From Amia ocellicauda (Eukaryota): DNA of 64,000 nt. Position 1 is the first letter of the stretch; every line of letters begins with the position of its first letter. Position numbers and translations under genes: made by a program. Shown here piece by piece: positions 33,356 to 48,581 of this stretch. The notes under the pieces were generated by a model. The model saw only the letters and a program-made list of their open reading frames with translations. It was not told the DNA's origin and did not search any database. The stretch covers positions 18,149,962 to 18,213,961 of the forward strand of contig NC_089855.1 in NCBI RefSeq assembly GCF_036373705.1, read 5' to 3'.

Positions 33356-33461
33356 GTTATCCATATAGTTAGGTTTGAACCCATCTTGTTGGCGTCTCAT
33401 CTCATCCTGCTCGCGCTGGCGCATCATTTCATCCTCGCGGCGCCTGCGCTCCTCTTCATGC
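33356..33461 (-). CDS. PSPC1: PSPC1 exon 6. It encodes (R)[35 protein letters not shown].
   Basis: ORF 33239..33505(-) supports it. The acceptor is gatgatag|g. The donor is gat aac|gtgagt. It matches human ...EEMIRHREQEELRRQQEGFKPNYMEN. Confidence 0.85.
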
Positions 33462-34837
33462 CTATCATCACAACAAGAACATTTGCCATTTAGCAGGAAA
33501 AACAAGACAAGATGGCACCGTCATTATGACCAGTGTTGCACACGTCTCGTGTCAGTTACTCCCCCATTTTGACATTTAAAGTATACAGTACATACAAATA
33601 GTAACAGCAATCTGAACAAAATATTTAACAAAAGCCCTACATGCAATACTACATATATTCAATGATATGGGCTATCAGGCAAACACTTAATTTGTCAGAC
33701 ATGTCATACAGATTTGTAATGCATTTTTAAATACAAATAAGGTGCAATAATACAACATGAACACACTTTTACACTATATTTATCACTGTGCAATAAAGAA
33801 TTCTGACTCTTTAAAAACAGGAAATGGCTACAGACTTACCTGTCTAATTCCATGGTCAACAAGTAATTGGTTGAGAACCATTAAGACAGAAAAATGAAAT
33901 CCTCAGAATCAAGCCGCTTCTTTACTGCTCACAAATACACATTTCAAGGGAACACATTCAGAAGGAGCATTGCCCGTTTCTATGAAAATCCAAGCTATTT
34001 TTTCAAGCCTGTCTGTGTCAAAACATTTGTTTTGTTTAACAATTGATTATATTGCTCAACACATTGCTGTAAAGATGGAGATTAAAATATAAATATATAG
34101 GCTATCAGTGTAATCATATATATTTTCAAAATACATTGTTTAAATGTAATCTGGTCCAATGTCTGCTGACACGACAGTGGCAACTGAGGGGCTTTTTATG
34201 ATGGGTTTGAAATTTGTTATATCCAATAACTTATTTAAGTAATGGGCAGTATACAAATCAAATGTTTTAATTAAGATAGGCTATGAGGGACATCTTAAGT
34301 GTGGTTTAGTATTGTAACGATTGCAGGGGTTTCCAAGGAGTAGACACAAATCATCATTGCGGGTGCAACAACAAATAATTGTATTTATTATTTCTGCAAT
34401 ATAAACAGGTCTCAGGGACTGAACACACACATACGGACTCCTTCCACCTCCATTCACCTTTTATTCTCTCTCCCTACACTCCTCCCGACCGCACCGCCTT
34501 TTCACCCTTTAACCCTTTATTGGGTGCGGTGGCACACTACAGTATTCAAACATTGTTAATTTCTATTAACAAGAGAGGGGGAAAAAAAAAATGTGATTGT
34601 CACGTGGCAAACCTTCAACGGTTTGTAAAAGCCTCTAAAGGTCTGGAAACCGAACAAACCTTCAAACGTTCGAACCTTCGAAGACAGTCCTAATTAAAAT
34701 CTATTAATTATAAATTAAACATGACACAGCCATCAAACCAAGCATTGTATTTTTCTCAGGATGACAATATTGTATCTAGTGTCAGGATTGTGTCTTAAAT
34801 ACTGTTTCCAAAGGCAGGTAGAACTTTTAAAGAATAC

Positions 34838-37459: not shown

Positions 37460-39701
37460 GTTGGACTTATTTTTCATTATATGTACAAGACTAAAAGCCA
37501 GTATTCACACAGAACTCAAGAGTATAGTTCAAAGGTACATACCATTTCATTCAATAAGAAAGTTTTGAAAATGTATAAAATCTTTTGGGACAATATAAGT
37601 TGCTTAATGTTATAACACAGAAAAAGACCAAACTAAGCTTAAAGTTTAGAGTAAGATCCTAAAACAGATTATTTAATATAAGCAGGTTCCAATGGAAAGT
37701 TCTCGTAATTAGAAATACGGACGACTTATTTTAAAGCACAACTTTTAAAAATATTTTGTATTGCTGGGTTTAAAAACAGTGTTTGATTTGTAACTAATCC
37801 ATTTGGAGAACTTACTCTAAAAACAATGCAACTTAAGTAACTAGGAATATTCATATTTAGCCTTAATAAACTTATTTTATGCACCCAGTTTAAAAGTGGA
37901 TCACTTTTTTAATGCATAATGTTTTAGTGTTACTATGGATACAGATATTTTAATTAGATTAAAATGTTCTGATTTATATCAGTATACTGTGAATACAGAT
38001 GACTGGCATCTGCCATTTTAAACTAAGATTAGCTTGTAGAAAATACGATAACTTCTGTAATATTGACCAATGTCTGTCAGATACACGATCAAATGCAGAT
38101 ACTAGTGTAAAAAAAATGTATATTATATATATATATATAGTAGGGGAACATGAAATTCTACATGCAGGTTAATCGCAGGCATTTAGACATCAGCAACTGT
38201 GCATGCATTTGTATGCATGATTCAACATAAAATACTGGTTAATCTCTATCAAGTATTTCATTGAGTGTTTAATACATCGGCAGTATAGTATGTAATCCAC
38301 ATTTTCCAAATGATGCGATGTAAAAATAACAATGCACTTTACATACATTAATAAATGTTCAAATAATCTAATTTTAAAGACTAATATAATTTACAACCTC
38401 AGAAAACATACATGGACCTACAGCAGCAGAGAGTATTGAAATGAGCTTTGACAGAGCATTCAGGTTCAACTGGATTCAATATTTAATCTTATGCCAAAAT
38501 GTAAAAGCCTGTATATTTTGTGCTGCTTCTATCCTGACAGCGGTGACCAGGTGTACAGCTCAACACTGCCAAAATGTTACTGAGCCAGCTGCCATATCTC
38601 TGCTTTATCTGGACTGTTTACGTCATGCCGTTTCTCTTCTTGACAATTGTAAACACAAATCCTTAAGAATAACATATACCGTTCCCCTCACACCATAGCT
38701 ATCTTTACAACTAGCTGACCAGGACGTTTTTCTTTGTCAATGTGTATGGACAAAAATCCTTAACTTGTCGGTCTTCCACACGTAATTATTTTTAAGAGGC
38801 TGCAAAATGCATCTGCAATTTTACATAAGCCACTCATCTATAGAAAGAGCGTTTTCCTTTCAATGGTTTCAATGAACTAAATCCACTTTGATTCTACTTA
38901 TATTAAAGGACAGATGGGGTTAATCTGTTTCCCCAACTTAAATGTAACCCATACCTCTATAAAATCAATATATAAACCCTGAATATGTATTTGTATTGAA
39001 GAAATTCACTCACATGAAACCACACACATTAGAAATCAATGAATAAATCTGCAAGCAATGTGAAGCTTCATGTATGAGAAACTAACAACCATACAAATCC
39101 AAACGCATGGTGTATTATCTAATGTATGTGTATTTATTTATTTTTGTCGTGTGTGTTCAAATCGGTTTTATTTGTATGAATCTTGTGATTACATTTGGGC
39201 AATTGGGACCGCTTTATTACCGTTATCGTAAATGTAACTATAGTCGTGTGCCGACCGTTCAGAAATGAACATGTTTTGGGGGTGAGAACAGAAGGCGCGA
39301 CGCTCCTCGGCAGTACAAATAACACTACAGTGGCATTAAAAAAGGGATGGCTCGTTTCATTTGCCGAAATTATGCAGCATGTTGCTTGTCAAGTATTTTC
39401 ACTGCTAATAGTACGTGACTTGCACAATTCAATACATTGTTTTTTCTAGACTTAAACTAAGATGAACCACCTCAGGATGTTGCGAATAACCAGCCTCTCT
39501 GCCTGCGTAATAACGCAATTAGTGCTACTGAAAACGCAATACATTAAACAGCATCCCAAACCGTGCATATTTTCAAATCAACTTTCTTAATGTTTATTTA
39601 CACACAGCGTGCAAACCTTTACGTTTCTCTTTATAGGTTACAAAAGCTATACAATAAGTATCTGTGCAATCTTGCGCAAACGCTGCGGGGGAGAAACTCA
39701 C

Positions 39702-40049
39702 CAGTCGGATGAAACCGAAGCCCCTGTCTCTGTTAATAAACACTTCGTTGGCTTCGCCATATTTTGAAAAAAGCTTTTTAAAATCCTCCTCGGTGAGGTC
39801 GGTGGGCAGGTTCCCTACAAAGAGCCTGCAGCGCTGGGTAAAAGTCTTTTCCCCGGGCTTCCTGAAGTTTTTCAAATCCAGGGTCATCTCCATCGGCTCC
39901 CCGGCGCCAGGCTCAACCTCCGGCGCCATCATCCCCTCGACGCTCGGCCCCGGCTCGGCTGGCGACTCGGAATCGCGCTTCGAGTTCTTCGTGCCAGGCG
40001 AGAGAGAGCTGTTTTGAATTTTCACCTGCTTTAAATTCCGGTTTGCCAT
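39702..40049 (-). CDS. PSPC1: PSPC1 coding exon 1. The ATG is at 40049-40047; the 5'UTR continues above 40050. The exon encodes [10 protein letters not shown]...[10 protein letters not shown] (116 aa, RRM1) and ends at a GTGAGT donor.
   Basis: The ORF track gives 39594..40049(-). The peptide matches the DBHS-family N-terminal and RRM1 region ([24 protein letters not shown]). On the minus strand, ...ttc atc cga ctg|gtgagt fixes the donor. Phase is 0. Confidence 0.88.
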
Positions 40050-40400
40050 ATTAAAAGGTGTCTTGGAGAGATTAGGCTCCGTTTGTAGTCAGTTTCGTGG
40101 AAATATGTTTTACAAAAAAGGCAATGAATGAACAGAGAATGTCACCCCGCTCTTCTGGAAAGATCTACTCCTTCCAAGATGGCGTCTCAGCACTGCGACA
40201 GCTGCCCACGTCACATCTAGCTCCAAGCCTCCTTCCGCAAGTACTGGATCAAATTCCTAATTATTCACTTATAGTACTGCACTATCTTTGCTGGCAAATA
40301 GCCCCCCCTTTTACTACCAACCTTGTTGAATTAGAGCCTTGCATTCATAATATGTTCCTCCTTTTAGTTTAATCTAGTATTGTGGCGAAATCCAGTTGAC
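40050..40400 (-). promoter_or_regulatory. PSPC1: PSPC1 5'UTR and core promoter region.
   Basis: This is the region immediately upstream of the ATG on the minus strand. It contains a YY1-like AAGATGGCG at about 40176-40184 and a CRE-like TGACGTG on the minus strand near 40210. It is CpG-containing. The TSS was not determined. Confidence 0.4.
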
Positions 40401-43039
40401 ACCGCGTACAAATGTAGCCCATACTCTCCTTTTGTCATTCACTGAAGAATGTGTGAAAATAGTGTTTTATATCTTAAAAACGGATCTGTATTTCATGTAG
40501 TGTAAATGTTCAAATGAAATTATTTTACTAAATGTAATCTATAGTATAGTAATTGTCTTGAGCAAATACTGGGTACTTCCACTAACCCTTCGGGGGGACT
40601 TGAGGCCCGCCACAAGGGATTGGATTAGCCTGAGAGCCGGGAAACCGAGGGAGAAAGCAGGGCCAGCCTGTCTCCGTCTCTCGGACATTGGGTGAAAGAT
40701 TATGGTCTCCCTTAATCTGAGTGAATGGCTGCATAGTAGTGTTAACCAGTCACTGCTGAGCTTCAGAGTGAAAGTAGTGTACCTTACATTGTAGTACAGT
40801 ATAATATAGTAAAACGATTAAAGCCTGAAGAGTAGGCATTAACATGAATGGATAAGATCGAAGCAATTATGCATTTTTTTATATTAGCTGGCCACTCATG
40901 TCCTCCCATAAGAAACAGATTGCTATTAAAATGAATTTAATTTCTCCCATCCTTGTACATGGTGAACGTCTCATCAATGTTATGCTAATTCCATGATAAG
41001 AGATCCATTACACACGTTAACGCAGATGATTTATATAAGCAATGGGAACAGCATTTCGGATTTTCAAAGCTTTCAACATGGGTCATCTATTGCATTAGTA
41101 CAATCCCGAAACGTAAGGAAATGTGTGATGCGTAAAACGTTTTAAATGGCATTCTTAGAACATATTAAACTTTTGTACCTAAAAGCAGAGCTGTTTAAAT
41201 AAAGTAAACTGAAAAAAAATGAAATGATCAAATATTATTCCACATGATTAGAACTAATATTGCACTATAGAGCTGTTTTGATATTAGTTTGCTTCACCAC
41301 CTTTGCAGAACAACAAGCTTCTTAAGATGCCTTAAAACTATTTGTATCAACTGGGGTACGTGAACATATATTATTCTAAGGTAGTACACAATCCAATGCA
41401 TTATGATTTCTTAAAGATTTGATATACTGTACTTTATAACTGCAATGGCAAGGTAAAGTACTTGCTATAATTTAACTAGAAAATGACGCTTTTCTCTGTA
41501 TGCTATGTAGAATCCTGCCCCCTTTCTTTAGCTTCTAGAATTACATTATAGTTTCTTCTAGTAAATAAGGGATGAAAAATATGCATCACCATTAACTGCC
41601 TTCACTGTTTAAGGGTCTGTAATCATTTTCAAAATGTCTGCTTGCATTCATGCAGTGCATATCTTTGTTTCTCGGGGAACATGTCTCAAAACATAACCAT
41701 CCATATAAGATATAGCACTGGGAAGAGTACTTGTGCCGATACAACATTTGATCTTATTTCGAAAATTAGTTCAAGAAGCACCTCAAAGTGTAAGAAAATG
41801 TGCTGTACTCCTTCTGTCCTATGTCTGTAGATTTAGAGAGCTTTAGAGTTACATAATCTACTGAAAACACCAGATAACAACCTAAGAAAAATAACCTGAC
41901 ATAGGTGCAAAGTATACACTAAGAAAAGCTTTTAAATTATATTTACTACAATGAATGTGTAACACATTCAGTTGGTTTCCTAGACACTGACCTTAAGCTT
42001 GATTAGATGAGCTAATGTGAGGAAGACATTAGATAAACGGGTGAAGACATAGTCTGCGGTCTAGAATTTAAACAAGATAGATACACAATTATATCTGTCT
42101 TCAACGTAGTGCTCTGCATTGCCACTATAGGACAGTCATACAGTGCCTACTGTCAAAACAACATTAACTCAAATTGTCCTGCATTTGTGCAATTAGGCTT
42201 CTTGTCAATATTTAAATTAAATATCATTTAACTACAAATGTGTAATCATCATAACAGTAATAGAGTTTATCTTCCATTGATGTAATTGTGTGATTAGATT
42301 AGGAAAGTTATTCGAATGGGATATTTGTGTTGCTCAACAGCCCTTTAGTGCTGAAACCTGTGTCAGAGAATCAGATTGTGGATGTTGCCCATGAAGACTC
42401 TTTCTTTGAACATGTCTGTGAAGATGTGCAATTAAATCCCACACACAAGCTGCATCAGTTTGGATCTGCTGCTCTGCTGAGGAGCCGCCTGGCTCAGCCT
42501 GTGGTTGATGCAGGAATTGCAGGCAAGCTTCCTAGGTGGAACATGGCGGCGGCCGTCCAGTGGGAGTGTCATGTGATTTACAGGAGATTATTTTCTCTTG
42601 CACTGTAAACTAACTGCTTAATACTATAGTTTGGCTGTGTGAAGTACCTTGAGGTGGTGCTCACCCTTGTTCATAAATACTAATCGTTTGACTCATTATA
42701 TCCCATCTATTACTCCCTCTAAATACCTGTTTTCAGACAGAAATGCCATATGTCTATTGAATCAAAGAGCAAACACTATTTCTTCAACAGTGAATATACC
42801 ACCAATAGCAGTGTATAGATACACACACGTTTTGGAAAGGCAGTATTCCCCAATGCAAAAATAAACAGACAATTCGTGCTCATTTTCTTTTCTTTACAAA
42901 AGCATAGAATTACAACAACAAAAATAGCATAGTAGTTTAACCTGCAATAACGAATCATTTAAATGAGCCAAACAATGTATCATGGTATATGTACAATGTT
43001 ACACTATAATTGCTATCTTAACGGGAATCTTAACTTAAT

Positions 43040-43230
43040 TGCTTGGTTTTAACTGCGGTGCATTTAATCATGCGCGCATGCGCCGTGGTGAGTGAAAATA
43101 AAAAAAGGAAACCGCTGCCTGTCACCTCCCACGCGTACAAAACGTCTCTACGTTTTAGCGCATGCGCCAGGGGATTTATGGCAGGGGACAAAAGTGGCGC
43201 TACATCGTATCCAGCTCGACTCGGGTAAGA
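43040..43230 (+). promoter_or_regulatory. ZMYM2: CpG-rich putative ZMYM2 promoter and non-coding first exon.
   Basis: Two perfect NRF1 palindromes (GCGCATGCGC) lie at 43075-43084 and 43158-43167. Candidate splice donors follow at ccgtg|gtgagt (43088) and ctcgg|gtaaga (43225). The first coding exon of ZMYM2 at 47645 begins at a 3' acceptor, so an upstream 5' exon is required. Confidence 0.45.
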
Positions 43231-44682
43231 GATTGAGAGACAATATATTGCATTTTATGGTTAATTCGACAAAGTTTTACCAACTGGTTGTGATGATGGT
43301 CGAGTGCCCAGAGAATCCTTCTGGTCTGGCCATGGACGTCTCCAGTCCAATTTAATGGAGACTTCTGCAGTTAATTTTACCCCGCCTGTGATTTTCCTCC
43401 CCCTCTCCGCTGTGGCAGGGTGCTATTGCCTGTACTCTCTCACGTATTGTTTCGTTCGCTCTCTAATGGCGGACGTGAGGCAGTGCTACTAAATGCCTAG
43501 CAGGGGCAAATAATAGCCCCCGTGGTTGTCAGGAAGTGAGTGGGTATGTATTGTATTTAGGTGGCTGTGGAAAGGGTTATTCGCATCACACAGGGCAGAT
43601 GGGTACTTTTAATGGGCATAACCAACGTTATAAATTGAGAAACTAGAGCAGATCAGTTGATCTGTAATGTGCTATAGCGCCCCTTGGGGGTAACAGTTGC
43701 ATTTTTTTTTATGATTGCCCGGGGTATTCGCTGTGGGCAAGTGGCAATTAAACGGCATTTATGCAAATGGGATTGTATATTCGAGAATGATGCACAATGC
43801 CTTGATGCTGACTAGTCTTGAAATGAAGTAGGAATAGCATAGTCCCTTCCACAAACGTGAACTGGGAGGACAAGTTTAGTTGCATTGACATGTGAAATTG
43901 GGCAGGGGGTATAACAACAAAAACAAACGAAAACAAACATGCCCACGATTTGTTTTCTTTGTTTCTGCTTCCTCGTGTTGTGCAGTCCCGAAACTATCTG
44001 TTGATGCATAGATGTTGAGCTCTTCAAGCTATTTTTTTGCATGCTATGTATGCCGAATAGTCACGAATAACTTATGATTATTTATCTGTAATAACAATGG
44101 CGCAGACTTAGGCTGGCCTCCCTCCTGCCTGCCGCTAATCCAATGGCTGCGTGCTCGATAGAGGCCAGGGGTGGGCTACACACGCGTTACTAATACATCT
44201 GTAAGGGAACGTCAGGCTGAGCACCATTTATTACGTTATATGTTTTATAAAAAAAACTGTTGCTGAGATTTGAACATAATCTTGTACTTTTTAACTATCC
44301 TATTAGATAAATATCATTAGCTTTCCAGAACGTGTAGAGCTTTTACGTCGTCTCTGCACTGTTTCTGGGTAAGGTTCTCATGCATGTTGGAACGGAGCTT
44401 CAGCTTGTTCAAATTGTCAAGGGCACAGTCTGTAGTAGTCTGCATATACAGAACCTGTGCTGATCAATTATATTGAAATGGAGAACATAATTTTAGATCT
44501 TCACTGTTTCCTGCACATATTTAACACACATTTAATATGTAATGTATTTTGTTTGTTTGAAGGCCATATTAGCCATAGTGAAATGAACATAACCAGCATA
44601 TTATATTGCTGTCAATGTGCACAATTCCTAAATCTCTTGTGCCATCTGTGCATTTTGTACCAAACATGATGTATATACGTGC

Positions 44683-44735
44683 GCATGCATGCATGTATGT
44701 ATGTATGTATGTATATAGTGTGTGTATATATGTTT
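44683..44735. repeat. (ATGC/ATGT)n and (TG/TA) compound microsatellite in the PSPC1-ZMYM2 intergenic region.
   Basis: gcgcatgcatgcatgtatgtatgtatgtatgtatatagtgtgtgtatatatg. Confidence 0.85.
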
Positions 44736-47644
44736 GTATCTTGGGGAGGCCTTCATCCAGCAGAGGATCTATAAAGGTGGCTGCTGCTGCTGATATGTAT
44801 GTAAAATATGAAAAGGGATTTTTAAAGCAATGCTTATTAAGTTGTATGTGTTAAAAGGATTTGATTAAACAATCCTGATACTGCTGTGTTGTAACCACCC
44901 AGCCTGTGTTTTAAAGGATAGGAAACATGTTAAATATTATAGACATTGTGAGAACCAGAGATGCAGCCTGTGCTAGCACACAATCTTACAAATTTTGCAA
45001 ATCATTATTATTGTCTGTTTATTTTTGATGGGGGGAGGAGTGCATTTTCCAGTAGAAAAGGTAGGGGAAAGCCATAGATAACTGGGAAATATACTTTGAG
45101 CTTGCCCTACCTACACCCCTATTAGCCAAGTATGCTTATTTTGTGGTTTTATTGATATTAACTTAAACCAGAGTTTTAATGCCATCTATACATATGTTGC
45201 ATTTTGTATTACTCTTATATTTTGTAAGTTGCATCTGCTAAGAAATAAATAAATAATAATATGCAATTGATTTAGATCAGCTGTTTTTACAAACTTTGTA
45301 TTCATCCTGCATGTGAAATTGGTTTTCAATCTATGCCTAAAATTACCCACTAGTGCCAGTAGTGTGGATTTAAATTGAGATAATTAGTCTGGTATAAAGA
45401 GGGGATGTCTTCTGACCAGATGTTTTTTTTTTTATTCCTGGCTTTAAGTAATGATCTGTGAAAAATAGAGCAATTGCAGTCTGAAAATACCCACACAGAT
45501 GGCGCTGTTTTGCATATTTCAATAACATTTTTACCTTTTTGTTATAGGGAATTAGGGTTCTTTTTCAAAATATGAACTTTATCTAGTGAATATTAGCATT
45601 CAAGTGATTGCAGAGTGGACCCACTAGCACAAATTGTATGTTTTTTGGTAGCTGCATGGGCATAGATGCACACAGACATGTTCCTAGTTTGATTAAATTG
45701 GATGTGTTCAATGCCATTTCCTCCTAAAAGAGAACAGTATGATACTTTAATTGATTCTCCAGTTGAGTATATATGCTTTTAGAATGCTTTCCTTCCTCAT
45801 TTGCAACCTGAGGGTGCAACTTTTTTGATGACCAGGTTTCCCGGTGTCCATTCACTGTATCACAATATTAACATTATTTTTATATATAAGCATTTTAGTT
45901 GTCACTGGCATGGTACAAATTCAGTTACAGTGATCATTACTTTGCCATGTAATGCAGGCACTTATGCTGGTGGTATTTATGGAACCAGTCTGAGATTATT
46001 AGGAAGTTCAACATATCGATTTCAAATGCAAGTCAAACATTCCTTAATGATGAACAGAAGTGACTGTTTTGTGTGAATTGTACACATCGGCTTGGGACTA
46101 ATACACCTGTACATTTTCAGTCTATGCAAGTGCACTTTATCTGTGAGTTAGTCTCTTTTGCATTCAAAATAAATTTGCTTACAGTGTTCAGAACATGGTA
46201 AGAAGTTGTGGTTTGTTTTCAGGATGTATTTGATGCGCATGGAGCCTCCATAGCCGTTATCAGCACTGGGCTGTGACAAGTTATTGCAGGAAGTGAGTAA
46301 GTGTTCTGTCGCTTTTCAAATTTATTTCTATGGGAGTCATACTTGTGTAGATGTCTTTTCTTTTTGAGAGAAGGTTTAGCACAAAATTTAAAATTTGATT
46401 TTCTAAATTGCAACAGCAACCTAGACTACATAACTTAACTTTCCAGTGCTTCAGGGCAGGGGACAATGCAGGAATTAAAATGTGACCAGAAACTTTTGAA
46501 CCAAATTTAAATGCATCTTGTTTCCAGTGCATTTGTGATGTAGGCTACACCAAAGATATTTAACTAAACGCATCTATATTCCACAAACTTCAATTATTTA
46601 ATTGCAGCAAGTATTCAACAGATTTTCAAATGGAGATGGAGGACATGGGGATATAGCTAAATATTTTCAATCGCAAAGGAATTAGTCATCTGTACAAAAA
46701 AAAAAGTTTAATCCAGGGCTTTCTCTCACTACCAAGTTAATTAATATATTGAATATTTAGTTTTGTCTGAGTTTTAAAATATGGTCTGTTACCCAATGCA
46801 AAATCTTGGTGCCTCAGGTATTGGAAAATGTAAAAATAATCAAAATGAATGGTTTGAACTCATGCTTACAGAGATTGGGCAATTCCTGCTGTCTTATCTA
46901 GGCAAGATGTGTACTCTTTACATCTGAAATTATTAAAAATTCATTAAGCTGTGATACTAAAATGCTGTAGGGAAAATGTCTGTAGACACAACAGCTGAGG
47001 ACATCTTGAGTCTTGTTTCATATTCACTTACCATAACAGTAGAATTCCTGGGATTTTTATTCTGTAATATTTATTTTTAATACAAGTCCATTAGGTGAAG
47101 ATCTGCAATATTTTTTTTTAATTCAATCACAACTCCACAAACATTACACATCTAATGGTATTGCTTTGCCGAGGGTTAAGAGTGTGTAAGAGTTAGTTCA
47201 TACTTTAAACCTACCTTCTTAGAATCAAGATTAAGCTTGTGAGGGAAGGAGACTGATGTGAAAGTGGAGAAACAGAGGGATGTGTGAAGCTTGGGATGAC
47301 TCCATCTTCTGAAGAAATGTAAATTACCACCTGTGTCTGTATAAACCATGCTACAGAAACACTTTCTCACAAAGTTACTGTGCTATGTTTTCCCTCGTGA
47401 TGCACAGAGAACCTTTCAAATGCACAGCTCACTTTGAGTGCTTCAGATTTGCTCCTAGCATTATCCACATCAGGTCACTATACTGATGTTCATCCTCTTG
47501 ACTCCCTAATACCAGTTTAGTATTTATTGATGCAGAAACACCCTTCTGCTTGAAGATCGACAGAGAGGAGTTGGCACATACCTGAATTCTCTGTGACCTA
47601 TTTCAGGTTTCCTTAACTCTCCCAATGCACTTCTGTTTTCTCAG

Positions 47645-48581
47645 GTGGTTACCTAAGTAATGGACCAAGGTTTTTCCAATGGTTTGGAGCCCAAGCTCGG
47701 TGCAGAAGAAAGCAACACGGCAGCAGAGGAGGAGTCTGCCATGGACACGGGAGTCCCAGAAGTTGAGACGGTTGCAGCGGTCCAGGACACCACGTCAGCC
47801 CCTGACGATCTCCAGCACACCTCGAAGGTGGCAGAGGAAGATGACGATGACGTAGTGTTCATAGAGCCACTTCCTTCAGCACAAGAGGAGAGCACGCCGA
47901 CCCTGGTTCCCAGCACTGGCACCGCTGCCGAAGCCCCCGTTTCCCAGACTCCAGACCGTGCCGAGGAGACTGCTACAGTGCCTCAGCACTCGCAGGATTA
48001 CACGCCTCCTCCGCCTCCCATGACTTTGGCCAACAGTCACGGCGAGACCATCGTTATAGATGATGAGGAAGATGCTGAGCTGACGTCTTTGCAGCAGCCC
48101 ACCTCATCCTCTGTCACTGGAACCAGGGCTGGTCAGGAGTCCAATGCTGCTGCGAGTTCTGCTGAGGCTACAGAGGCGATGGAGAGCCAGGTGGTGGCAG
48201 CTGTGCAGACTCCACTGAGCAGCACGGAGCCAGACTCTGAAATCCAGATCGCCAGCGTGACAACGCTTGACCTGGGGGCTAGCCTTGGCAGTGGTGGCCA
48301 GGGAGCCTCTGTACCTGGTGCCCGGGTCGATGGGGACATGAATCTGATGATAACCAGTGTCACCTCTCTGCACAACAGCAGCCTGGCGGAGGTAGGCAAT
48401 GGGTTGCAGATAAGCAACACCTTCAGCCTCAACCCAGATGCACAGAGTGCTCCCACAGCCTCACACACTGACTCCAGCAGGCCTGTGGGCCATTCCAGCA
48501 CGGGGACTTTCAATCCAGGAAGAGTCGGCACAGCCAGGGAGGCTGCTCAGAATGGGGAAACGGGGACCCACCAGAGACCTG
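47645..48581 (+). CDS. ZMYM2: ZMYM2 first coding exon. The ATG is at 47660. It encodes MDQGFSNGLEPK...DDDDVVFIEP...ETIVIDDEED...TEPDSEIQIASVTTLD...DMNLMITSVTSL...GTFNPGRVG...THQRP(D).
   Basis: ORF 47660..48607 supports it. The acceptor is ttttctcag|g. The donor is cct g|gtaatt. Several blocks match the human ZMYM2 (ZNF198) N-terminal region: DDDDVVFIEP, ETIVIDDEED, TEPDSEIQIA.VTTL and DMNLMIT.VTSL. Confidence 0.88.

Follow-up and report, generated by a model that had tools for sequence, protein, structure and literature searches.

A conserved NRF1-type promoter and non-coding first exon as the probable 5′ end of ZMYM2 in Amia ocellicauda

The palindrome GCGCATGCGC is the consensus of NRF1 (alpha-Pal), a conserved motif that is one of those most strongly enriched around the transcription start sites (TSSs) of vertebrate housekeeping genes. 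Tandem alpha-Pal sites occur in the eIF2-alpha promoter, the promoters of cytochrome c and TFAM are NRF1-dependent and of the TATA-less CpG-island type, and NRF1/CpG promoters are often bidirectional. Here we analyse a 64,000-nucleotide stretch of the Amia ocellicauda genome (contig NC_089855.1, positions 18,149,962 to 18,213,961 of the forward strand; hereafter the window, in whose own numbering all positions are given), in which PSPC1 on the minus strand and ZMYM2 on the plus strand lie head-to-head. Sequence comparison with other fishes indicates that the segment at 43.07–43.23 kb is probably a conserved NRF1-type promoter with a non-coding ZMYM2 exon 1 that would end at 43224. The segment resembles the described NRF1 housekeeping promoters in its tandem exact copies of the palindrome, in its short, CpG-rich, TATA-less block beside a first-exon donor and in the conservation of the motif across species; it differs from them in that the island is small (around 0.5 kb, with 46–52% GC in a 37% GC genome), that deep conservation is confined to one of the two sites and that NRF1 binding is predicted. 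So read, this is a standard housekeeping-type promoter of a known kind, and the conserved blocks within intron 1 are its only mildly unexpected feature.

Exact copies of the palindrome lie at 43074–43083 (palindrome 1) and 43158–43167 (palindrome 2), with starts 84 bp apart, against 0.01 copies expected in 64 kb, and none of 100 shuffles of the window contained at least two. Both match the NRF1 consensus (YGCGCAYGCGCR core). The motif scan thus bears out the two exact sites reported in a first-pass annotation of this DNA, which had placed the first of them at 43075–43084. When up to one mismatch is allowed, a single further site appears, GCGCCTGCGC at 33440, inside a PSPC1 coding exon; the CpG-rich window around it (33371–33570) was rejected as a promoter candidate, being the minus-strand, Arg/Glu-rich exon that encodes the PSPC1 coiled coil.

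Fish loci were fetched around ZMYM2 homologues. Four of them (L003, L004, L005 and L011) were alignable with the window, and sturgeon (L001), trout (L009), killifish, L002 and L012 were also examined. The ZMYM2 N termini of L003, L004 and L005 are around 80–90% identical to that of Cyprinus carpio, and we therefore regard these loci as cypriniform (the cyprinid loci below); L011, which is 63% identical to carp in the first coding exon, represents a further fish lineage. The palindrome 2 core CGCATGCGC is invariant in the window, L011, L003, L004 and L005; the complete palindrome is shared by the window and L011. The counterpart of palindrome 1 in L011 reads GCGCGTGCGC, still within the NRF1 consensus, and lies 73 bp from the second site. 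Over as much as 10 kb ahead of the ATG, each compared locus has one NRF1-type site, with the exception of L011, which, like the window, has two adjacent ones. Killifish has TTTTAGCGCATGCGC 1.3 kb before the ATG, in the context seen in the window and preceded by CCGGAAGT; nothing else in this region could be aligned, and no consensus donor lies within 220 nt.

The composition of the segment is equally distinct. Over 43040–43540 the ratio of observed to expected CpG (o/e) is 0.89 at 49% GC, compared with 0.35 and 37% GC for the whole window. Scored in 200-bp windows (GC ≥ 0.5, o/e ≥ 0.6), the interval from PSPC1 exon 1 to the ZMYM2 coding exon contains CpG-island windows only at 43041–43250 and 43281–43600, both short and barely at 50% GC, in agreement with the CpG-dense block previously described upstream of ZMYM2. 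A weaker CpG block covers 44001–44300 (o/e 0.77, 46% GC).

Window positions 43122–43514 align by blastn to L003, L004, L005 and L011 at 68–70% identity (E values of 1e-39 to 5e-52). The matches to this and the other blocks described below are collinear and lie 2.5–9.6 kb upstream of the ZMYM2 coding exon in the compared loci, and the rest of the 7-kb interval is unalignable. Block 1, at 43125–43224 on the plus strand, would comprise the core promoter and the putative non-coding exon 1, with its 3′ end at 43224 and a putative TSS at around 43090–43210. Its invariant strings are CTCCCACGCG, AACGTC, TACGTTTT, CGCATGCGC, ATTTATG, ACAAAA, TGGCGCT and TCCAGCTC. Measured as the fraction of alignment columns invariant across three lineages, conservation stands at 0.6–0.8 over 43116–43234 and falls from 0.75–0.8 to 0.35 just after the donor at 43225, as expected at an exon–intron boundary. 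The 43.1-kb block and the other conserved blocks are each single-copy in the window, and a repeat or transposable element was rejected as their source.

The first coding exon of ZMYM2 (exon 2, 47645–48581, plus strand, defined by its open reading frame (ORF) and homologues, with the ATG at 47660 and the donor CCTG/GTAATT) is preceded by a polypyrimidine tract and 3′ splice site (ttctgttttctcag, 47630–47644), so that the acceptor reads ttttctcag/GTGGTTACCTAAGTAATGG (a slash marks a splice junction) and the exon starts 15 nt before the ATG. Ten fish loci, among them sturgeon, trout and killifish, share the acceptor cag/GTGGTT at 12–15 nt before the ATG, and an upstream non-coding exon is therefore required, as the first-pass annotation had argued from the window. 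That annotation had further pointed to strong donors at 43088 and 43225, with a third GT site at around 43536, and to alternative first exons. All three are found there by direct reading, and they rank first, second and sixth among 447 GTs, respectively, but their conservation differs sharply. The 5′ splice site CGG/GTAAGA at 43225–43230 would form the exon 1/intron 1 boundary: G/GTAAGA is invariant in five sequences from three lineages and always lies 66–68 nt after the NRF1 core. The donor-like GTG/GTGAGT at 43088–43093, directly after palindrome 1, retains GTGAG in the cyprinid loci and has lost it in L011 (GGAGAGGG), and hence persists in two of the three lineages; it may serve as a minor alternative. 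GAA/GTGAGT at 43536–43541 is not conserved, the segment that carries it being absent from all of the other loci. A set of alternative first exons using the three donors is thus not supported, and only the exon ending at 43224 is robustly supported. On the 5′ side of block 1 there is no conserved acceptor (TTTTAG in the window reads TTTTCAC or TTTTCGC in the other loci), which fits a first rather than an internal exon. Taken with the conserved donor and acceptor, ZMYM2 intron 1 would span 43225–47644 (4,420 nt, plus strand), the predicted exon 1/exon 2 junction being TCCAGCTCGACTCGG/GTGGTTACCTAAGTAATGG in the window and TCCAGCTCTACTCCG/GTGGTTGCCTAAGCGATGGATGG in cyprinids. The earlier proposal of a ZMYM2 promoter and non-coding first exon is well supported in its core by a block collinear upstream of ZMYM2 with an invariant palindrome 2 core and an invariant 43225 donor; palindrome 1 and the third donor do not share this conservation.

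Mammalian ZMYM2 is built along similar lines. L006, the sole spliced messenger RNA recovered, is a mammalian ZMYM2 contig with one or more non-coding exons before the ATG exon, a spliced, GC-rich 5′ untranslated region (UTR) and a large first coding exon that is spliced at HxxP/DSWISQ to the exons encoding zf-FCS domains. Unlike the coding arrangement, its 223-nt 5′ UTR does not align to the fish block, and orthology of exon 1 beyond fishes is therefore unproven. L007 and L008 are genomic or unspliced, and among the contigs returned by the homology searches there were no fish transcripts with a 5′ UTR, the fish contigs being genomic.

On these grounds we propose that an NRF1 homodimer would occupy the conserved palindrome at 43158–43167, with the palindrome at 43074–43083 acting as an accessory, lineage-variable site. 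NRF1 would nucleate dispersed initiation nearby on a TATA-less, CpG-rich promoter, and the resulting transcript would be spliced from the conserved donor at 43224/43225 to the conserved acceptor at 47644/47645, 15 nt before the ATG. Two promoter-proximal modules in the 4.4-kb intron 1, block 2 (GC box, YY1-like) and block 4 (CCAAT, GC box and cAMP-response element (CRE)), probably tune or supplement the promoter.

Several observations weigh against this proposal. Palindrome 1 is degenerate in the cyprinid loci (GCGCGCGCAC or GCGCGAGCAC). Because L003, L004 and L005 form one clade, the alignable independent lineages number three (the window, L011 and cypriniforms), and nhmmer profiles did not find the blocks in the flanks of sturgeon L001, trout L009, L012 and L002, which are gapped or short. 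The donor ranking used an approximate 5′ splice-site weight matrix over the 447 plus-strand GTs at 40300–47640. A TSS upstream of 43162 would give a 5′ UTR with upstream ATGs at 43162 and 43178 and an upstream ORF (uORF) that is not consistently terminated in cyprinids, and a TSS downstream of both ATGs would leave an unusually short exon 1 (<45 nt). Finally, block 2 and the promoter-like 44065–44175 are conserved at least as strongly as block 1. As for the uORFs themselves, with an upstream TSS the conserved ATTTATG at 43178 would open one of 20 codons in the window, with a TAA stop that overlaps the main ATG (TAATG), and the ATG at 43162, inside palindrome 2, would open another that ends 3 nt before the ATG. 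A uORF was rejected as a consistent feature: cyprinids lose the stop and thus do not conserve this layout, and their substitutions do not look synonymous. Coding potential was likewise rejected for the ORFs at 43043–43492 and 42327–42608, which show indels that are not multiples of three and no Pfam match.

The conserved sequence continues into the proposed intron 1 as three further blocks, none of which is assigned a strand. Block 2 (43367–43490; AATTTTACCCCGCCTG, GTGGCAGGG, TCGCTCTCTAATGGCGGAC and GAGGCA) is, at 125 bp, the most invariant stretch, with 55–90% of columns invariant in the three lineages, and it is more conserved than the adjacent ZMYM2 coding exon, for which protein identity to the compared fishes is only 35–40%. 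Within it lie a GC box (CCCCGCC) and the YY1-like ATGGCGG. Indel lengths that are not multiples of three mark it as non-coding; it gave no Rfam match, none of its 33 predicted base pairs showed a compensatory change (alifold), and it holds no conserved splice site and is followed by no conserved donor. Block 3 (43676–43753) is around 69% identical to L003, L004 and L005, and its nhmmer profile also covers L011. Block 4 (44065–44175; 79–84% identity in three lineages) combines AACAATGGCGCAG, a CCAAT box (ATCCAATGGCTGC) and a GC/KLF box (GGCCAGGGGTGGG), and is followed on the plus strand, at 44343–44374, by an invariant CRE-like ACGTCGT (TTGACGTCGT in other fishes) and the window donor CTGG/GTAAGG at 44369. 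Around 250 bp beyond block 4, within 44343–44431, GTCAAGGGCACAG is also conserved. Blocks 2 to 4 resemble the first-intron conserved non-coding elements of vertebrate regulator genes in their collinearity, their lack of coding sequence and a conservation above that of the neighbouring coding exon; they differ in being short (80–125 bp), close to the promoter and detected only among some teleost lineages.

Block 4 could serve ZMYM2 as an alternative promoter or as an enhancer within the intron, and the rival that takes this furthest places the main promoter and first exon at 44065–44375, with the donor at 44369, and reduces the NRF1 block to an upstream minor alternative promoter or an enhancer-like element. 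This is the main rival, and we judge it unlikely. It would account well for block 4 being the most identical of the blocks and for its classical CCAAT and GC boxes ahead of the CRE-like motif, and the 44369 donor is strong, ranking fourth of the 447. That donor, however, aligns to none elsewhere: cyprinids have a GTGAGT at a similar distance, around 25 nt further on, and L011 has no donor nearby, so that none is positionally conserved after block 4. The region also falls below the CpG-island criterion at 46% GC, and a promoter there would leave unexplained the invariant GTAAGA, its fixed spacing to the NRF1 site and the drop in conservation behind it. Still more doubtful, in our estimate, is that the blocks at 43367–43490 and 44065–44175 form an autonomous conserved unit, such as a second regulated ZMYM2 promoter or an unannotated non-coding transcript controlling ZMYM2 dosage in fishes.

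Other readings detach the NRF1 block from ZMYM2 altogether. It might instead provide promoter and first exon to a conserved non-coding transcript of its own, which could share the ZMYM2 strand and end in intron 1 or be divergent, and which regulatory linkage would keep beside ZMYM2. The frequent bidirectionality of NRF1/CpG promoters and the conservation of blocks 2 to 4 without coding potential speak for such a transcript, and the invariant AATTTTACCCC can be read on the minus strand as GGG/GTAAAA. This last is nevertheless a weak donor whose transcript would run antisense through exon 1; the sequence left of 43120, the place for a divergent exon, is not conserved; there is neither an Rfam match nor covariation; and ZMYM2 must have an upstream exon, for which 43225 is the sole conserved donor in the interval. 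We consider this reading improbable. That the block is part of a bidirectional promoter held in common with PSPC1, or of the shared bidirectional regulatory domain about which the first-pass annotation asked, appeared to us very improbable. PSPC1 (ATG at 40049, minus strand) and ZMYM2 are indeed divergent neighbours, as at classical bidirectional promoters, and the NRF1 block is the sole CpG-island block between them. Yet the distance from 43074 to 40049 is around 3.0 kb, well beyond the <1 kb of the classical cases; PSPC1 has its own CpG island (39661–40120), with YY1-like (GCCATCTTG) and CRE-like (TGACGTGG) motifs at around 40180–40215; and a tblastn search (E < 1e-3) detected no PSPC1 exon 1 in L004, over the 7.3 kb that precede the block, or in the available L003 and L005 sequence, so that linkage is not seen in the sampled cyprinid loci, where the block instead accompanies ZMYM2. 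For these three reasons a shared PSPC1 promoter is unsupported, and the YY1-like and CRE-like motifs at around 40.2 kb suggest that PSPC1 has a promoter of its own. There remains functionless coincidence. Taken singly, short motifs and GT[AG]AG sites occur often, and a GC-poor background makes even a small CpG cluster conspicuous, but the failure of all 100 shuffles to yield two matches, the collinear conservation (to E 5e-52) and the invariance of motif and donor effectively refute chance co-occurrence. The NRF1-type promoter with an exon 1 ending at 43224 is therefore the reading we carry forward.

The two flanking gene models were assigned as follows. The coding part of PSPC1 exon 1 occupies 39702–40049 on the minus strand, with the ATG at 40049 and the donor CTG/GTGAGT after 39702; it is an ORF encoding an RRM_1 domain, and the best match in the PDB is PSPC1, with NONO and SFPQ behind. 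Just inside PSPC1 intron 1, the AT-rich segment at 39101–39400 (38–44% GC) has an unusually high CpG o/e of 1.3–1.7 and may be a downstream extension of an unmethylated PSPC1 promoter domain. In the carp-like locus L004, a Tc1/mariner transposase remnant (DDE_3, HTH_Tnp_Tc3_2) lies at 1495–2573, around 5 kb upstream of the conserved block, where PSPC1 would be expected if linkage were conserved. The identity of ZMYM2 is confirmed by homologues and by zf-FCS domains in the exons after the first coding exon, the next of which starts at around 49213; the nearest match to its N terminus in the protein collection is from sturgeon, at 45% identity. L008 (Logan SRR24115917 contig, 1–1047), a ZMYM2-like fish contig, lacks an intron at the HxxR/DSWISQ junction; an additional boundary resembling an intron precedes EDNDDDVV, and CTMCKK is followed by GTAAG. 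The contig could come from a lineage with different intron positions or be a partly processed copy.

Elsewhere in the window, the GC-rich patch (46–50%) at 42327–42608 contains a perfect YY1-type AACATGGCGGCGGC (42542–42555) and a 93-amino-acid ORF without a Pfam match; the window holds one copy of it, and the other fish loci do not conserve it. An isolated segment of around 50% GC at 40540–40760, lying between PSPC1 exon 1 and the NRF1 block, contains short ORFs in both orientations; it too is present once in the window, matches nothing in the other loci and may be an old fragment resembling a short interspersed element or of another transposable element. At 44648–44739, sub-threshold Rfam matches to mir-297, mir-568, mir-3149 and mir-1277 (at most 43.8 bits, where the gathering score is 90) were rejected as a low-complexity artefact of a (TGCA/TGTA)n microsatellite. 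A non-coding RNA gene was also rejected: the Rfam scan of 38–49 kb returned only sub-threshold microRNA matches and that of L005 none, and there were no tRNAs and no covariation in block 2. The exon 1 and block 2 cores had no match in metagenome scans, and a 19-mer scan of bacterial genomes gave four matches against around four expected by chance. Literature searches on ZMYM2 with NRF1 and promoter found nothing directly relevant, and those on zebrafish zmym2 morpholinos or 5′ UTR sequences nothing usable.

Collectively, the comparison locates the probable 5′ end of the Amia ocellicauda ZMYM2 gene, with exon 1 ending at 43224 and intron 1 at 43225–47644, and suggests for the head-to-head neighbour PSPC1 a promoter separate from that of ZMYM2. 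It also offers a regulatory hypothesis, namely that ZMYM2 would depend on NRF1 by way of the conserved palindrome at 43158. Since ZMYM2 acts as a dosage-sensitive corepressor, the compact fish promoter with its set of intron-1 elements would be convenient for dissection by reporter assays or CRISPR.

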